DNA from: Spirulina sp.
Lineage (GTDB): Bacteria > Cyanobacteriota > Cyanobacteriia > Phormidesmidales > Phormidesmidaceae
Length of the DNA: 64,000 bases
Direction: 5' to 3'
NCBI GenBank assembly: GCA_044070495.1
Contig: JBIPSI010000013.1
Coordinates: 88,581 to 152,580, forward strand
The notes under the pieces are model-generated. The model searched no databases and had not been told where the DNA came from. It saw only the letters and a list, made by a program, of their open reading frames with translations. The position numbers and the translations under genes were made by a program. Shown here piece after piece: positions 22,074-58,197 of this stretch; the first letter of the stretch is position 1, and every line of letters begins with the position of its first letter.

Positions 22074-23390
22074 ATGATTTTTGAGCCCCCAAATTCTGGC
22101 GATTTCCCCAGTGCCGATCCCCGTTCTAACTCCGTTCACTCCGATAACCACGTGGTCCCTCCCTCGGGCGACGCTGTAGCTTCGGTTAATGAACATCCCG
22201 GCTCTGATCTCAATACCTTCCACCCTATCGGACGTCAGCCCAGTCAACCTAACGATGCTACCGCTATGCCCGGAGATACGTTAAACCACAACACCGCATT
22301 GCCCAGTAGCGTTGCCCGTATCAAGGTGATTGGGGTGGGAGGTGGCGGCTGTAATGCCGTCAACCGCATGATCCATAGCGGCCTAGCTGGCATCGAATTT
22401 TGGTCTGTGAACACTGACGCCCAGGCCCTAGAAAACTCTGCCATTTCTAACACGCTCCACATTGGTCAAAAGTTGACCCGTGGCTTGGGGGCAGGCGGGA
22501 ACCCCGCCATTGGCCAAAAAGCCGCCGAGGAATCCCGTGAGGATATCGCAGCGGCCCTAGAAGATTCTGACCTCGTCTTTATTACGGCGGGGATGGGGGG
22601 AGGCACCGGAACCGGAGCCGCTCCCATTGTGGCGGAGATTGCCAAGGAAGCTGGAGCCCTCACCATCGGGGTTGTCACCCGTCCTTTTACCTTTGAGGGG
22701 CGTCGTCGCATGACCCAAGCCGACGAGGGCATTGCCGCCCTCCAGGGCCGGGTAGACACCCTGATTGTGATCCCCAACGACAAGCTGCTGTCGGTGATTT
22801 CCGAGCAAACCCCCGTCCAGGAAGCCTTCCGCACCGCCGACGACATCCTGCGCCAGGGCGTTCAGGGTATTTCCGACATCATTACTATCCCCGGCTTGGT
22901 GAACGTAGACTTCGCCGACGTGCGGGCGGTGATGGCGGATGCGGGTACGGCGCTGATGGGGATTGGCGTTGGCTCCGGCAAGTCGCGAGCCAGGGAAGCG
23001 GCCATTGCGGCCATTTCCTCACCCCTGCTAGAGGCGTCCATTGATGGCGCGTCCGGTGCCGTCTTTAACGTCACTGGCGGCACCGACCTCACCCTCCATG
23101 AGGTTAACGCAGCGGCGGAAATTATCTACGAAGGGGTCGATCCCAACGCCAACATTATCTTTGGGGCCGTTATCGATGAACGACTGCAAGGGGAAGTGAG
23201 AATCACCGTCATCGCCACGGGCTTTAATACCCGACCGGGGGTGCAGCCCGTCGTAGAAGCCGAGCGAGTCACGCCCTTCAAGCGCAACCTGACGCCACCC
23301 CCTCCCACGTCCCCCGGCGGTGGAGGAGGGTTAGGTGCAGGACTTGATATCCCTGAGTTTCTGCAACGACGACGCCCCAACAATCGTTAG
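22074..23390 (+). CDS. ftsZ: Cell division protein FtsZ
   Basis: [30 protein letters not shown]-terminal LDIPEFL; start uncertain (22068, 22074 or 22266). Confidence 0.98.
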
Positions 23391-54138: not shown

Positions 54139-54687
54139 CTAGGCCGCCCGCCGTTTGCGGAAAATTGGCGTCATCTGAAGGCCAGTGATCAGCAGAATGA
54201 CCAGGCCCAAACCTACCAACAGCACATAGATAGATCGCCCCACCGTGCCAAAGTAAGATCCCTGGTGCAGGCTCATCAGCACCGAAGCTTGCTCTCTGGA
54301 AATCCCAAACCAAGCCCGTCCGAGGCGATAGGCAATGCCCGTTGAGGCACTCAGCACCAGGGGCAAAAAAGCGATGGGGGCCAGGATGCGGTGAATCCAG
54401 CGATGATCTTTTTTGGGTTGGGCCTTGGTGGGCTTGCGTTTGATCACCATGACGATGCCTGTAACCAGCATTCCCAGCAGCCCCACCCCCATCAGCAACA
54501 CATACACCGGAACCAGGGATTCCCCTAAAAAACCGCCCTCATGGATGGTTAGAAAAACATCTCCAACGTCTTCAGACAGACCAAACCAGGTGCGCCCCAC
54601 CCGATAAACAACGCCGGTAAGGGCCGTCAGCAACAGGGGCAGAAAAATAATTGGGGCACTTTTGCGGTGTAGCTTGCGTAGGTTCAT
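54139..54687 (-). CDS. PepSY-TM-like membrane protein with internal duplication
   Basis: Two copies of HR...P...LPL.L.A.TG..YR.GR.WFG......H.G. Confidence 0.8.
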   Translation of the reverse strand: MNLRKLHRKSAPIIFLPLLLTALTGVVYRVGRTWFGLSEDVGDVFLTIHEGGFLGESLVPVYVLLMGVGLLGMLVTGIVMVIKRKPTKAQPKKDHRWIHRILAPIAFLPLVLSASTGIAYRLGRAWFGISREQASVLMSLHQGSYFGTVGRSIYVLLVGLGLVILLITGLQMTPIFRKRRAA

Positions 54688-54719
54688 TATGGTTAAAACT
54701 CCAGGACAATTTGGGAACA

Positions 54720-55391
54720 TCAGACTTCAACCCATTGCCGCAGCAGGTTGGCGTGGGTTTTGCTGAGCAGGTCAAATTCGGTGGTTTTGCCGTACTTTTC
54801 AAACAGGGAGCGGCGCACGGTATCTAAATCAAACAAAATTTCGCGATGGTGGGCCGATCTCACCTGACTTTGCACCCAGGTGACTGCCGCGAACCGCACC
54901 CCTTGGGTAACTTCTGTGACCTGGTGCAGGTAGGTGGAAGGGTAGATAATGGCCGCCCCAGCGGGCAGTTTGATGGTTTGGTCGCCTAATCCGGCATCAA
55001 GCATCAGTTCGCCGCCTTCGTAGGAGTCTGGGTCGCTGAGAAATACCGTGAGGGAAAGATCGGAGCGGTGGAGGGGAGAGTCGCCCATGACGGCATTATC
55101 CGTATGCCAGCCGTAGGCCATGCCGGGGGTGTAGCGGCTGATCAACAGGGGCCGCATCGCCTTGGGGCGGGCGATGGCCTGAAATAGCGGATTGTTCAGC
55201 AGAGCGGGCTGAATAATCTGGCGGATGGCCTGAGCGGTGTCGGTGTCTCCCTTGATCTGTTCGTTATGTTTGACGGTTTTGGCAAAGGTGCCCGCCGTCA
55301 GCTTGCCATCCACAAATTCCGCTGTTTTCAGTAGGGTTTGGATGGTAGCGAGGTCTCCGGGGGTAAGGAGCGGATCGATGCAAACCAGCAT
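54720..55391 (-). CDS. PKHD-type Fe(II)/2-oxoglutarate dioxygenase (PiuC/YbiX-like)
   Basis: FVDGKLTAG, YGWHTDNA, RSDLSLTVFL, YEGGEL, YPSTYLHQV, R.AAVTWVQS, NLLRQW. Confidence 0.92.
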   Translation of the reverse strand: MLVCIDPLLTPGDLATIQTLLKTAEFVDGKLTAGTFAKTVKHNEQIKGDTDTAQAIRQIIQPALLNNPLFQAIARPKAMRPLLISRYTPGMAYGWHTDNAVMGDSPLHRSDLSLTVFLSDPDSYEGGELMLDAGLGDQTIKLPAGAAIIYPSTYLHQVTEVTQGVRFAAVTWVQSQVRSAHHREILFDLDTVRRSLFEKYGKTTEFDLLSKTHANLLRQWVEV

Positions 55392-55463
55392 GGCAGTAGG
55401 TTAGAAATTGGGCTAGGACGGTGGGGACGGTGACACTCACTTTAAAGAGTGCCACCTGAGAAC

Positions 55464-55946
55464 CTAGTCGTCCCGTTCACCGGATTCGCCCTGCTCACCA
55501 CCGTCGTAATCGTGGGACTCGCCAGATTCGCCGGATTCGCCGGATTCACCGGACTCGCCAGATTCACCGGACTCACCAGATTCACCGGATTCATATCGGG
55601 AAGCCAGTAGGGTCGAATTATCAGCGGATTGGGCAACCGACGAAGAGGATGGCAGGCTAGATTGCTGATCGGGCGCTACGCTGGGGCTATCTGTGGCGCT
55701 GGCTCCGCCTTCTTCGCCCCCCTGGGTGGTGGCATCGGGTTGGGATTCGGTGGTTGGGGCGGCCATACCCTTAGCGCTGTCTGGGGCGGTGGCTTCGCTC
55801 TCTTGGCTACCCTGGGCCGTCGGGGCAGGGTTAGTCGGAACCACAGAACCCCCTTCCTCTCCACCATCGGGGGCCGCACTGCCGCAGGCCGCTACAGTGG
55901 TGGCTAGACCAAGGCTGAGAAACAGAGCAACAGCTTTTGAGTTCAC
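55464..55946 (-). CDS. Low-complexity acidic lipoprotein with GGEEGG motifs and a C-terminal (ESG)n tract
   Basis: AGAGGA RBS then GTG; signal peptide with lipobox VAAC; about 8 ESG units at 55521-55592. Confidence 0.8.
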   Translation of the reverse strand: MNSKAVALFLSLGLATTVAACGSAAPDGGEEGGSVVPTNPAPTAQGSQESEATAPDSAKGMAAPTTESQPDATTQGGEEGGASATDSPSVAPDQQSSLPSSSSVAQSADNSTLLASRYESGESGESGESGESGESGESGESGESHDYDGGEQGESGERDD

Positions 55947-55979
55947 AGGTGAAATCCTCTTTACTTGGGTTACGGGTCG

Positions 55980-56017
55980 ATAGTAGATCCCAAAAAGTAA
56001 AGAACCAGGAAAGAACC
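55980..56017 (-). promoter_or_regulatory. OmpR-type 11-bp direct repeat and -10 box upstream of the ESG lipoprotein
   Basis: GGTTCTTTCCT-GGTTCTTTACT (56017-55996), then TACTAT (55985-55980). Confidence 0.6.
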
Positions 56018-57382
56018 TTACCGAGTTTTGGCCAGGGGCAATTGCACGGTAAATGTACTGCCCCGACCAGGCTCGCTGTGGACGGTGAGGATGCCGCCGT
56101 GGCGCTGGGTAACGGCTTGGGCAATGGCTAAACCCAGGCCAGAACCGCCTTGGTGGTGGCTGCGGGCCTGATCCACGCGCCAAAATCGGTCAAACAAATG
56201 CGGCAGATGTTCGGCGGCAATCCCAATGCCCGTATCTTGCACCGTGATGACGGCCTGGGAAGGACTGCGGTGGAGGCTGACGGTGACGGTGCCCCCGGCC
56301 TGGGTGTAGTGAATCCCGTTGGCAATTAGATTCGTGAACAACCGCTGCATCTGGCTGGCATCGCCATTCACATCGGCGTTCGCGTTGAGGTCAAGCTTGA
56401 GGTCGATCTGCTGTTGGTCAGCCCGATCTCCGTATAGCGTCACCAAGTCCTCTAGGAGTTCATCTAGGGCGATGACGGCCCAAGCCCGCTGATCCGGCGT
56501 TTGGCGATCCATACGGGCCAGCAGCAGCAGATCCTCCACCAACTGACTCATCTGATCGGAGGCGCTGGCGATGGCCTGGAGTTTTTCGGTATCGGCGGGG
56601 TGGATGCGTTCTGGATGGCTTTGCATCACCGCAATGGAAGCCCGAATCGCCGTTAGGGGATTGCGCAACTCGTGGGAGGCATCCGCCGTGAACCGCTTCA
56701 GTTGGGTCAAGGTTTCTAAAACGGGTTTGAGCGATTGCCGCGTCAGCCAAAACCCTCCCAATGTCGCCAAGCCCGACACAATCACCACGCCAAGGGCCAA
56801 TCCCCCCTGCAAACGCCGCAGTTCCGCCTCCAGATGATCGGTGGATTCGCTGGCTCTCACATAGCCCATCGGCATGGTTTGGTCAGACATTTCTCCGACA
56901 TACACCGGCAGCACAAAACTGCGAATGTTACCTTCCTGCATCCACTCACCCTCGGCATCCAAGGCTAACGGCAAGGGCGTTTTGGGGAAAAGGTTGCCCT
57001 CCCGCACCATTAGATGGCGCTGGGCATCAAACCATTCCACCCCTTGATTGGCCGGGGCCAGAGAACTGGCTACGGCCTCAGGTACCGAATTGGCCTGATA
57101 TTTGCCCATCAGTTGCGACAGAGTCATGGTCGGCGGCGCGTCCTGTTTTCCATCGTTAGGAAGATAGTCGGCGTACTCGTCCTCCGTCGTTAGTTCTTCG
57201 TATTCGTGCTGAATAATTTCCAGGGTTCCGGCGGAGGACGTAGCCACTTGGCTAACATGCAGGCTGAGTTGATGGTGACGATCACGGGCCACCAAGCCAT
57301 AGATCGCCGCCGAAAAAGCACCCAAAATTACCGCAATCACCGCTAGGTAAGACCACAGCAGCCGATTCCGTAGGTTGCCCAA
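56018..57382 (-). CDS. Membrane sensor histidine kinase
   Basis: Two TM helices, FTADASHELRNPL, NLIANGI, DTGIGI, FDRFWR, GSGLGL; start uncertain. Confidence 0.93.
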   Translation of the reverse strand: MGNLRNRLLWSYLAVIAVILGAFSAAIYGLVARDRHHQLSLHVSQVATSSAGTLEIIQHEYEELTTEDEYADYLPNDGKQDAPPTMTLSQLMGKYQANSVPEAVASSLAPANQGVEWFDAQRHLMVREGNLFPKTPLPLALDAEGEWMQEGNIRSFVLPVYVGEMSDQTMPMGYVRASESTDHLEAELRRLQGGLALGVVIVSGLATLGGFWLTRQSLKPVLETLTQLKRFTADASHELRNPLTAIRASIAVMQSHPERIHPADTEKLQAIASASDQMSQLVEDLLLLARMDRQTPDQRAWAVIALDELLEDLVTLYGDRADQQQIDLKLDLNANADVNGDASQMQRLFTNLIANGIHYTQAGGTVTVSLHRSPSQAVITVQDTGIGIAAEHLPHLFDRFWRVDQARSHHQGGSGLGLAIAQAVTQRHGGILTVHSEPGRGSTFTVQLPLAKTR

Positions 57383-57389
57383 ACGGGGA

Positions 57390-58067
57390 TTAGAGATGAG
57401 GGTTGAGCCGATATCCCAGACCATACACATTCTCAATGAAGCGGTCAGGAGCCCCCGCCGCCTTTAACTTTTGTCGCAGACTTCTGAGGTGAACTTTGAC
57501 GGTTTCTTCGGCGGGCATGTCTTCGTAGGCCCAAACCCGCTCCAGAATGGTGCTGCGGCTCAAAACCTGGCTGCCGTGGCGTAGAAAAAGCTCCAGCAGG
57601 CTATATTCCTTAGGGGTTAGGGTCAGATTTTCTCCATCATAAATAACGACACAGTCATCAGGATTTAGGGTTAACTTTTCCCACTCCAGCACCGCAGAAG
57701 GGGCCACCGTTCCCCGTCGTAGCAATGCCCGAATGCGGGCCAGAAGCTCCGGCAAATCAAAGGGTTTCACCACATAGTCATCGGCTCCCACATCTAGGCC
57801 AAAAACTTTGTCTTCGCTAGTATCTCGTGCGGTAAGCATCAAAATTGGGGTGGTTAAACCCAGGTGGCGCAACTTTCGACAGAGGCTAAGGCCATCGATC
57901 CGAGGCAGCATTAGGTCTAGAATAATCAGATCAAAACTATGGGTTTCGGCAAAGGTTAGCCCCAGTTCGCCATCGGTTGCCACTTCGACCACATAGCGCT
58001 GATCCGTTAGGGCTTCCGCGATGGCCTTGGCAATGCGCTGATCATCTTCGACTATCAAGATTTTCAT
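57390..58067 (-). CDS. OmpR-family response regulator
   Basis: MKILIVEDD, ILDLMLP, LTARD, GADDYVVKPF, LTPKEY, VYGLGY. Confidence 0.95.
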   Translation of the reverse strand: MKILIVEDDQRIAKAIAEALTDQRYVVEVATDGELGLTFAETHSFDLIILDLMLPRIDGLSLCRKLRHLGLTTPILMLTARDTSEDKVFGLDVGADDYVVKPFDLPELLARIRALLRRGTVAPSAVLEWEKLTLNPDDCVVIYDGENLTLTPKEYSLLELFLRHGSQVLSRSTILERVWAYEDMPAEETVKVHLRSLRQKLKAAGAPDRFIENVYGLGYRLNPHL

Positions 58068-58197
58068 TGAGTTAGCTTTAGTCAAAGGGCCGGAATAAGC
58101 GTGTTTTAAGTCCCCAAAATACCTGATTACTGGGCTATATCTGATCACTAGCCCAGTAAAGCTAACTCGTCAAAAGGTGAAGAGCGAGAATTTAGGG

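Follow-up and report, generated by a model that had tools for sequence, protein, structure and literature searches.

The window, a 64,000-nucleotide (nt) stretch of Spirulina sp. contig JBIPSI010000013.1 (positions 88,581 to 152,580), carries on its minus strand a compact set of five genes—an OmpR-type response regulator, a sensor histidine kinase, an acidic lipoprotein, an Fe(II)/2-oxoglutarate dioxygenase of the PiuC/YbiX type and a small four-histidine membrane protein of the PepSY_TM family. This arrangement is beyond chance, as other cyanobacterial genomes show the genes in the same order. All five co-directional genes have the positions and identities given in a first-pass annotation of the sequence, which had proposed a metal-handling system. 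We tentatively favour a conserved cyanobacterial envelope metal module, induced by the two-component pair and most likely serving iron. Its parts come from known families (PiuC and PepSY_TM, both linked in the literature to handling of iron or copper, and OmpR-type two-component systems); what sets it apart is the lipoprotein standing in the place of a receptor, apparent two-component control with a DNA element of its own and the bare four-helix core of the membrane protein. Among papers on PiuC or on PepSY/two-component systems in cyanobacteria, judged by titles and abstract openings, we found no description of the cluster.

An acidic lipoprotein paired with a PiuC-type dioxygenase

A genome scan anchored on the membrane protein (using an alignment of 38 sequences) yielded 79 loci, each with flanks of up to 10 kb and nearly all of them cyanobacterial (L numbers below). 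Open reading frames (ORFs) were called and compared by BLAST with six window proteins (the five above and an exporter encoded upstream), and those of at least 60 aa lying −8 to +6 kb from the anchor were clustered. The regulator is found nearby in 32/79 loci, the kinase in 30/79 and the dioxygenase in 15/79; regulator orthologues adjoining the membrane-protein gene in other loci show 59–85% identity. Directly upstream of the dioxygenase lies an E/G-rich lipoprotein with the same signal peptide in every case (15/15 loci; 12 by clustering, 3 by inspection), so that the synteny in other cyanobacteria on which the first-pass proposal had been staked is present. The converse also holds within the membrane-protein-anchored loci: in none of the 79 did we find the lipoprotein without the dioxygenase. 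Regulator and kinase accompany the pair in the window's order in 11 of the 15 dioxygenase loci.

The dioxygenase is a full-length family member (NF003974, 285.8 bits against a cut-off of 143; PF13640, 53.8 against 27; PKHD_C, PF18331, 25.1 against 22). Its nearest PDB relatives are 3dkq and the PiuC entries 9ghl (E = 7e-58) and 9qn0–9qn4; a literature search found no paper for the recent PiuC entries. Across an alignment of 34 sequences, drawn from the best 120 of 7671 homologues at E ≤ 0.001, H96, D98, H156 and R166 are invariant (34/34). We take H96, D98 and H156 to be the HxD...H iron triad and R166 to be the basic residue that binds 2-oxoglutarate.

Dioxygenases of this PKHD type occur in Fur-regulated iron loci such as PiuA-PiuB-PiuC of Pseudomonas, Fiu-YbiX of E. 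coli and CciT-CciO of Caulobacter, and in the Piu locus a PepSY_TM-family membrane protein stands beside the enzyme. The window agrees with these loci in its dioxygenase, down to the invariant H/D/H/R set, and in its PepSY_TM-family neighbour, as in Piu. It departs from them in having no TonB-dependent receptor, with an unannotated acidic lipoprotein upstream instead, and in a putative control element that is a direct repeat of the two-component type. The missing receptor had been remarked on in the first pass, and the 64-kb window encodes none in its 8 other ORFs of 450 aa or more. In the 15 dioxygenase loci, 39 ORFs reach 480 aa; the 33 that were scanned, which are all except five kinase orthologues and an ORF truncated by the end of its locus, likewise include no receptor. 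The CciT gene, by comparison, is reported to adjoin 87.7% of CciO genes (10.1101/2024.11.25.625226). An account of the Caulobacter system describes CciO, a PiuC homologue, as cytoplasmic and specifically required for iron uptake via the adjacent receptor CciT; its substrate is called unknown there, and one of the authors' models has CciO making a cell-tethered or cell-associated iron ligand (PMC12004947).

In the lipoprotein, a conserved signal peptide is followed in turn by a GGEEGG cluster, a linker rich in P/S/T/A, the (ESG)8 run and finally an acidic tail. The (ESG)n repeat seen in the first pass is real, with Tandem Repeats Finder returning periods of 9, 18 and 27 at 55515–55593. A lipoprotein is recognized by a signal peptide that ends in a lipobox cysteine; here, Lys4 and a hydrophobic stretch lead into the lipobox V-A-A-C at residues 18–21, whose Cys is kept in 15 of 16 aligned family members (the exception is that of L015). 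The mature part holds 29 Asp and Glu against 4 Lys, Arg and His and is almost devoid of hydrophobic residues, and the protein contains two GGEEGG motifs. No match was obtained in Pfam or NCBIfam. The Atlas model is disordered (predicted local distance difference test score (pLDDT) 0.41, predicted template-modelling score (pTM) 0.08), the nearest ESM Atlas clusters are cyanobacterial 'hypothetical protein' entries at 0.82–0.84 (a lead only) and the structure rows all fall below TM 0.35.

A profile built from the 16 members retrieved 50 homologues, which, apart from one weak precomputed Pfam match, have no Pfam domain. Their source names, where given, are all 'hypothetical protein' and their organism labels, where present, all cyanobacterial. 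Several lie on contigs equal in length to one listed for dioxygenase or membrane-protein matches, which is consistent with the genes sharing a contig. In the smallest members, of 50–60 aa (16 of the 50 homologues were inspected), signal peptide and lipobox precede a first GGE-type cluster, which a short linker rich in P and T joins to a C-terminal (EGG)n. From genome to genome, the repeat unit is ESG, EDG, ERG, EGG or EKG; Glu with Gly at a three-residue period is the constant feature. Mean pairwise identity is 77% over the N-terminal 21 residues (the signal peptide) and 42% over the mature part. It is unusual for a signal peptide to be better conserved than the protein that it exports. Its invariant residues are encoded by several synonymous codons, which places the constraint on the peptide, not on the DNA.

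Three observations suggest that the dioxygenase may act on the lipoprotein precursor: the two genes adjoin each other in 15/15 loci, the N-terminal peptide is unusually conserved and co-folding gave a weak signal. That the lipoprotein is the enzyme's substrate is unproven. Co-folding the two proteins gave a score of 0.43 (best of three controls, 0.00), with runs agreeing in at least 42% of contacts and a partner pLDDT of at least 68, which amounts to weak support. Of 157 solved complexes used as a benchmark, 116 reach the same mark, as do 2 of 215 mismatched pairs; at scores of 0.60 or below, it is reached by only 18 of the 157 solved complexes and by both of the passing mismatches. We supplied our own alignments, so these benchmark counts hold only roughly. 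Regarded as a precursor akin to those of ribosomally synthesized and post-translationally modified peptides, as the first pass had suggested, the lipoprotein would offer a leader-like N-terminus (77% identity against 42% for the mature part), invariable adjacency to the enzyme (15/15) and the weak co-fold.

Five loci contain a paralogue of the lipoprotein between kinase and lipoprotein (L015:8039-9118, L016:7841-8542, L020:8106-8744, L022:7456-8313 and L075:7978-8607), here termed ESG-RTX. It consists of a degenerate copy of the lipoprotein's N-terminal peptide with no lipobox, a (GES/GEL/GER)n stretch and then RTX calcium-binding repeats. The two that were scanned (L015 and L016) match Pfam HemolysinCabind, and each of the five has a direct-repeat element of its own. 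Membership of the collagen family was rejected for this group of proteins: the lipoprotein has no match to Pfam PF01391, and ESG-RTX paralogues reach 18.4 and 22.3 bits, short of the 27.2 required.

The two-component pair and its putative promoter element

The regulator comes closest to the NCBIfam model RppA (216.9 bits; equivalog cut-off 250) and the kinase to RppB (298.4 bits; equivalog cut-off 400). With both scores below the cut-offs, the pair is a relative of the RppA/RppB (NrsR/NrsS) nickel system, not a member of it. The kinase has two transmembrane helices and a periplasmic domain of ~150 aa. Aligning 22 kinase orthologues (30 loci have one) reveals a common core in the periplasmic domain, differentiated into two groups. 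In the window's group, all 10 members carry H-E-x-x-E and an acidic stretch soon after the first membrane helix, and 8 of the 10 occur with lipoprotein and dioxygenase; the other group, of 12 members, has an Asp-rich D-G-D-L-D motif, and none of the 12 occurs with either. PmrB binds Fe(III) through acidic ExxE motifs, and BqsS uses an RExxE motif to sense Fe(II). The likeness of H-E-x-x-E to these motifs may be read as a hint at the kinase signal, a weak one and the only one that we have.

Two 8-nt half-sites spaced 11 bp apart, TTCTTTCC and TTCTTTAC, form a direct repeat between the kinase stop and the lipoprotein start, 46 nt upstream of the latter. In the window, a −10-like hexamer (TACTAT, 55985–55980) follows 11 nt past the second half-site, and related loci have a TAnnnT hexamer 10–12 nt after theirs. 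OmpR/PhoB regulators usually bind tandem repeats that are spaced by 11 bp and overlie the −35 region, and the neighbouring regulator probably binds this putative box. The first-pass suggestion that the pair acts as inducer gains support from this conserved OmpR-type repeat in front of the lipoprotein operon.

To score the element, we built a position matrix from 16 sites, leaving out four near-identical loci, five Planktothrix-type loci and L015. The window's repeat reaches 34.6 bits; the next best match in the 64 kb, at 22867, has 20.1 bits and falls inside ftsZ, and was rejected as a second regulator box. While a reversed-sequence control gave none, the 1.28 Mb of loci contain 33 matches scoring 23 bits or more; they are spread over 28 loci and always lie on the coding strand. 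The gene next downstream is that of the membrane protein for 16 of these matches, the lipoprotein for 11, the ESG-RTX paralogue for 5 and the regulator for 1. Sixteen of the 33 lie in loci outside the training set of the matrix, some of them close relatives of training loci. Four loci possess the element with no two-component pair nearby, as expected if the regulator acts in trans, and five others (L025, L026, L041, L056 and L071) have no element and only a distant regulator (37–46% identity). A variant repeat, again with 11-bp spacing, is found ~60–200 nt upstream of the four-histidine gene in the Planktothrix-type loci L007, L008, L009, L018 and L068, whose regulators are 62–64% identical to the window's; site and regulator have possibly co-evolved.

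The window's minus strand holds a head-to-tail series of six genes from 59221 to 54139 (Table 1), tightly packed from the regulator onwards. The kinase start lies inside the 3' end of the regulator gene (an overlap of 41–47 nt, the same as in relatives), and the GTG start of the lipoprotein is 71 nt past the kinase stop and 8 nt past a AAAGAGGA Shine–Dalgarno sequence. A gap of 72 nt separates lipoprotein and dioxygenase; from dioxygenase to membrane protein there are 32 nt, or a 1-nt overlap with an alternative upstream start. No terminator-like site was found within the lipoprotein–dioxygenase–membrane protein unit (minus strand, 56018-54139). The hairpin after its last gene has a folding energy of −32.8 kcal/mol (z = −3.91), and none of 200 shuffles folds equally well. 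A promoter/terminator consensus scan of the region gave no sigma-70-like promoter, and terminator-like sites were no commoner than in shuffles.

The cation diffusion facilitator (CDF) exporter that the first-pass annotation had placed directly upstream is there, on the same strand and a genuine family member, but it is not in the unit: none of the 79 loci has a homologue within ~10 kb, and we rejected the exporter as a member of the system. Its gene is 230 nt from that of the regulator, and the folding of this intergenic region is indistinguishable from that of shuffles (z = −1.82). Within it, positions 58127–58159 (~60 nt upstream of the regulator start) form a perfect inverted repeat of 11 bp with 11 nt between its arms, which could be a terminator of the CDF gene or an operator.

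Table 1 Features of the six-gene region, in window coordinates
Feature	Position	Strand	Basis
CDF exporter	59221-58298	-	NCBIfam Cdf31 (zinc efflux), 518 bits vs cut-off 460
OmpR/PhoB-type response regulator	58067-57390	-	Pfam Response_reg, 109.8 bits; Trans_reg_C, 84.7 bits
Sensor histidine kinase	57430/57436-56018 (likely start 57430)	-	Pfam HisKA and HATPase_c
Direct repeat, putative regulator box	56015-55992	-	Half-sites 56015-56008 and 56004-55997
Acidic lipoprotein precursor, 160 aa	55946-55464	-	Sequence; lipobox; tandem repeat; without Pfam/NCBIfam match
PiuC/YbiX-type (PKHD) Fe(II)/2-oxoglutarate dioxygenase, without signal peptide	55391-54720	-	NF003974, PF13640, PF18331
Minimal PepSY_TM-family protein, 182 aa	54687-54139	-	PF03929, 49.7 bits vs cut-off 28.8
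Terminator-like hairpin after membrane-protein gene, facing convergent rpe	54107-54074	-	Strand folding vs shuffles

Among other neighbours, a Na+/H+ exchanger-family protein lies within 10 kb in 4 of the 15 dioxygenase loci (L002:10982-12622, L005:11618-13624, L012:1050-3188 and L073:17924-20083). It is a Usp fusion in three of these and carries TrkA_N in L005; in two loci its gene is directly downstream, on the same strand. The locus of an Oscillatoriales metagenome-assembled genome holds an 870-aa ORF (L002:12895-15507) that matches all Pfam domains of the major vault protein (MVP), with Vault repeats at 223 bits and the MVP shoulder at 174 bits.

The four-histidine membrane protein

The membrane protein is an internal duplication, formed by two similar halves with four transmembrane helices in all, and PF03929 matches it in two stretches. 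H7, H49, H99 and H141 are invariant in 38/38 aligned homologues, taken from the best 120 of 280 at E ≤ 0.001. The AlphaFold2 model (pLDDT 89.3, pTM 0.79) shows four long helices and one short helix in each outer loop. As the N-terminus, middle loop and C-terminus are basic, H7 and H99 would lie at the inner face of the membrane, opposite H49 and H141 at the outer one. This agrees with the published description of FoxB and CrpH, whose haem ligands are two His per membrane face (PMC13038864).

The protein resembles the haem-dependent periplasmic metal reductases FoxB, HiuB, FpvG, FsrB and CrpH in its Pfam family and in its four invariant His, two per face. It differs from them in being only 182 aa long, in lacking PepSY domains and cavity and in that its module is also found fused to GGDEF or PAS-GGDEF signalling domains; by the account in PMC13038864, all modelled PepSY_TM reductases have large periplasmic domains with a substrate cavity. 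The ESM Atlas returned only the protein's own PepSY_TM clusters, and its tie to the FoxB-like reductases appears to be one of Pfam family only. A role as a reductase is unproven, and the GGDEF fusions also fit a sensory one.

An exhaustive profile search found 365 representative clusters at E ≤ 0.001, including canonical two-part PepSY_TM proteins (~370–410 aa) and longer fused forms. Eighteen long forms were scanned: three carry GGDEF (P0293, P0317 and P0354, the last also with PAS) and a fourth PAS only. In the anchored loci, GGDEF fusions occur at L060:9995-11761 and in L062, L065, L066, L069 and L078, and in L001, L002 and L004 a class III cyclase stands between dioxygenase and four-histidine gene. 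Fusions and cyclase neighbours together indicate that signalling proteins also use the four-histidine module, either as their input or as a partner.

The gene directly downstream of the four-histidine gene encodes a Tat-signal Rieske [2Fe-2S] protein with an acidic tail in five loci (L038:2324-2887, L028, L030, L032 and L059), a further hint at periplasmic electron transfer. In the Rivularia-/Calothrix-type loci (L019, L023, L024, L027, L037, L050 and L074), the four-histidine gene follows one or two copies of a ~195-aa lipoprotein, for which we obtained no Pfam match, and an atpG-like gene; most of these loci continue with metallo-beta-lactamase-like and rhodanese-like genes (labelled by reading the sequences). 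Four homologues, with 41–52% identity, sit on contigs binned as Actinomycetota, Planctomicrobium, Akkermansia and Chthoniobacter (L032, L072, L076 and L077), reflecting either a wider distribution or binning errors.

A possible iron module weighed against its alternatives

As we picture it, the module would comprise two transcription units, one for the sensor pair and one for lipoprotein, dioxygenase and membrane protein. The periplasmic domain of the kinase would bind a hard metal cation, most likely iron, via its acidic H-E-x-x-E cluster, and the phosphorylated regulator would then occupy the direct repeat over the −35 region and switch on the second unit. The lipid-anchored, disordered lipoprotein may use its two Glu/Gly clusters to concentrate the cation at the membrane surface. 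The four-histidine protein, as the bare transmembrane core of the PepSY_TM ferric/cupric reductases, would carry two b-haems, pass electrons outward and reduce the bound metal. In the least certain step, the cytoplasmic dioxygenase would recognize the conserved N-terminal peptide and hydroxylate the lipoprotein precursor before export. The lipoprotein would take the place that the ligand of the TonB-dependent receptor has in proteobacterial PiuC loci. Extending this picture, the lipoprotein may be a ribosomal, lipid-anchored 'protein siderophore', with Glu and Asp in its E/G clusters hydroxylated to give tethered alpha-hydroxy-carboxylate iron ligands and the four-histidine protein reducing and releasing the iron; we regard this extension as decidedly doubtful.

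Several points weigh against an iron module. The identity of the metal is guessed from acidic ligands and family context, and NrsRS, the closest named two-component system, is reported to sense nickel, not iron (PMC4284471). A co-fold pass as weak as this one is wrong more often than it is right if the pairing is not already likely, and no interface came with it; with a cytoplasmic dioxygenase and an exported lipoprotein, any modification would have to precede Sec export. Pfam and AlphaFold2 show neither a periplasmic PepSY domain nor a cavity in the four-histidine protein, whose periplasmic loops of ~25 aa are unlike those of every characterized PepSY_TM reductase. Foldseek found nothing in the PDB at E ≤ 0.001 (best E = 0.33, with FoxB not among the top matches listed; the method gives weak matches for helical bundles), and a sequence-profile search of the PDB gave no FoxB and only chance-level matches (elastase, E = 0.3). 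Three of the 15 dioxygenase loci (L005, L045 and L055) have neither the repeat nor a two-component pair nearby, and, because the loci were chosen via the membrane protein, the 15/15 count says nothing about dioxygenase genes without a membrane-protein neighbour. Lastly, the four-histidine module is the N-terminus of GGDEF diguanylate cyclase fusions in 6/79 loci, and a membrane class III adenylate/guanylate cyclase adjoins the four-histidine gene in 11 loci (directly after it at L013:5655-6908, for example), both of which point to signalling.

These last two observations, together with the GGDEF fusions in 3 of the 18 long representatives, the PAS-only form and the two-component pair in ~30 loci, would suit a signalling module. 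There, the four-histidine protein would be a haem-based redox or oxygen sensor or a kinase-tuning accessory subunit, the lipoprotein would modulate the periplasmic domain of the kinase and the dioxygenase would report O2, Fe(II) or 2-oxoglutarate status. Small proteins encoded beside two-component systems are described as binding the kinase sensor domain in DbfQ–DbfS and PA2658–BqsS, and in DbfQRS and BqsPQRS, as in the window, a small PepSY-labelled protein is coupled to a kinase–regulator pair (PMC12714742). Those precedents, however, concern soluble PepSY-domain proteins of the periplasm, with genes upstream of the pair, whereas the window's is a four-helix membrane protein without a PepSY domain, encoded downstream of the pair and of the regulator's presumed target promoter, as an effector would be. 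The obligate pairing of lipoprotein and dioxygenase would also be left unexplained, and on balance we find a signalling module distinctly improbable. Another alternative is a collagen-like surface protein, in which (Gly-Glu-X)n forms a short triple helix and a prolyl-4-hydroxylase-like dioxygenase hydroxylates Pro in the P/S/T-rich linker. The enzyme's PKHD (prolyl hydroxylase-like) group, the three-residue spacing of Gly over as many as 8 triplets in the window's lipoprotein and as many as 11 in relatives, and the sub-threshold Collagen matches of the ESG-RTX paralogues are consistent with this. The lipoprotein itself has no Collagen match, however, its repeats are short and without Pro, the minimal 50–60-aa members have only two or three triplets and the Atlas model is disordered, all of which makes a triple helix very hard to credit.

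In a defence against metal excess, the kinase would sense too much of a cation in the periplasm (Fe3+, Al3+, Zn2+, Ni2+ or similar) and induce an acidic lipid-anchored sponge, with membrane protein and dioxygenase limiting redox damage. The parallel is with CopRS-CopM of Synechocystis. There, as in NrsRS-NrsBACD of the same organism, an OmpR-type pair controls adjacent envelope metal genes; CopRS is reported to induce CopM, a periplasmic copper-binding protein (PMC4284471). Metal defence is also consistent with the nickel system RppA/RppB as closest NCBIfam models, with 'heavy metal' sensor kinase and response regulator subfamilies ranking near the top, with the zinc-efflux CDF gene directly upstream in the window and with secreted acidic ESG-RTX proteins in the regulon at 5 loci. 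The target genes of the window's unit differ from those of the Synechocystis systems, however, and an RND or P-type efflux system is absent from the unit. Every match to a named metal-sensing system falls below its cut-off, the CDF neighbour is kept in none of the 79 loci, and Ni, Cu and Zn are poorly bound by carboxylate-only ligands. PiuC and PepSY_TM proteins, moreover, are tied in the accounts of PMC13038864 and PMC12004947 to acquisition, not efflux. We consider metal defence unlikely and retain, tentatively, the two-component-induced iron module.

An iron module would bear on several questions beyond this locus. The substrate of PiuC/YbiX/CciO enzymes is described as unknown in the Caulobacter papers (PMC12004947, 10.1101/2024.11.25.625226), and the constant lipoprotein neighbour is a concrete candidate partner. 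If true, the 'protein siderophore' reading would supply the first substrate class for these enzymes and a form of cyanobacterial iron capture without a TonB-dependent receptor. Reductive iron uptake is reported to be widespread in cyanobacteria, with the reductase tentatively assigned to ARTO (PMC7676907); the widespread, regulated four-histidine PepSY_TM core is a new candidate for a cyanobacterial ferric reductase. The conserved direct repeat, for its part, gives a handle on the regulon of an uncharacterized two-component system.

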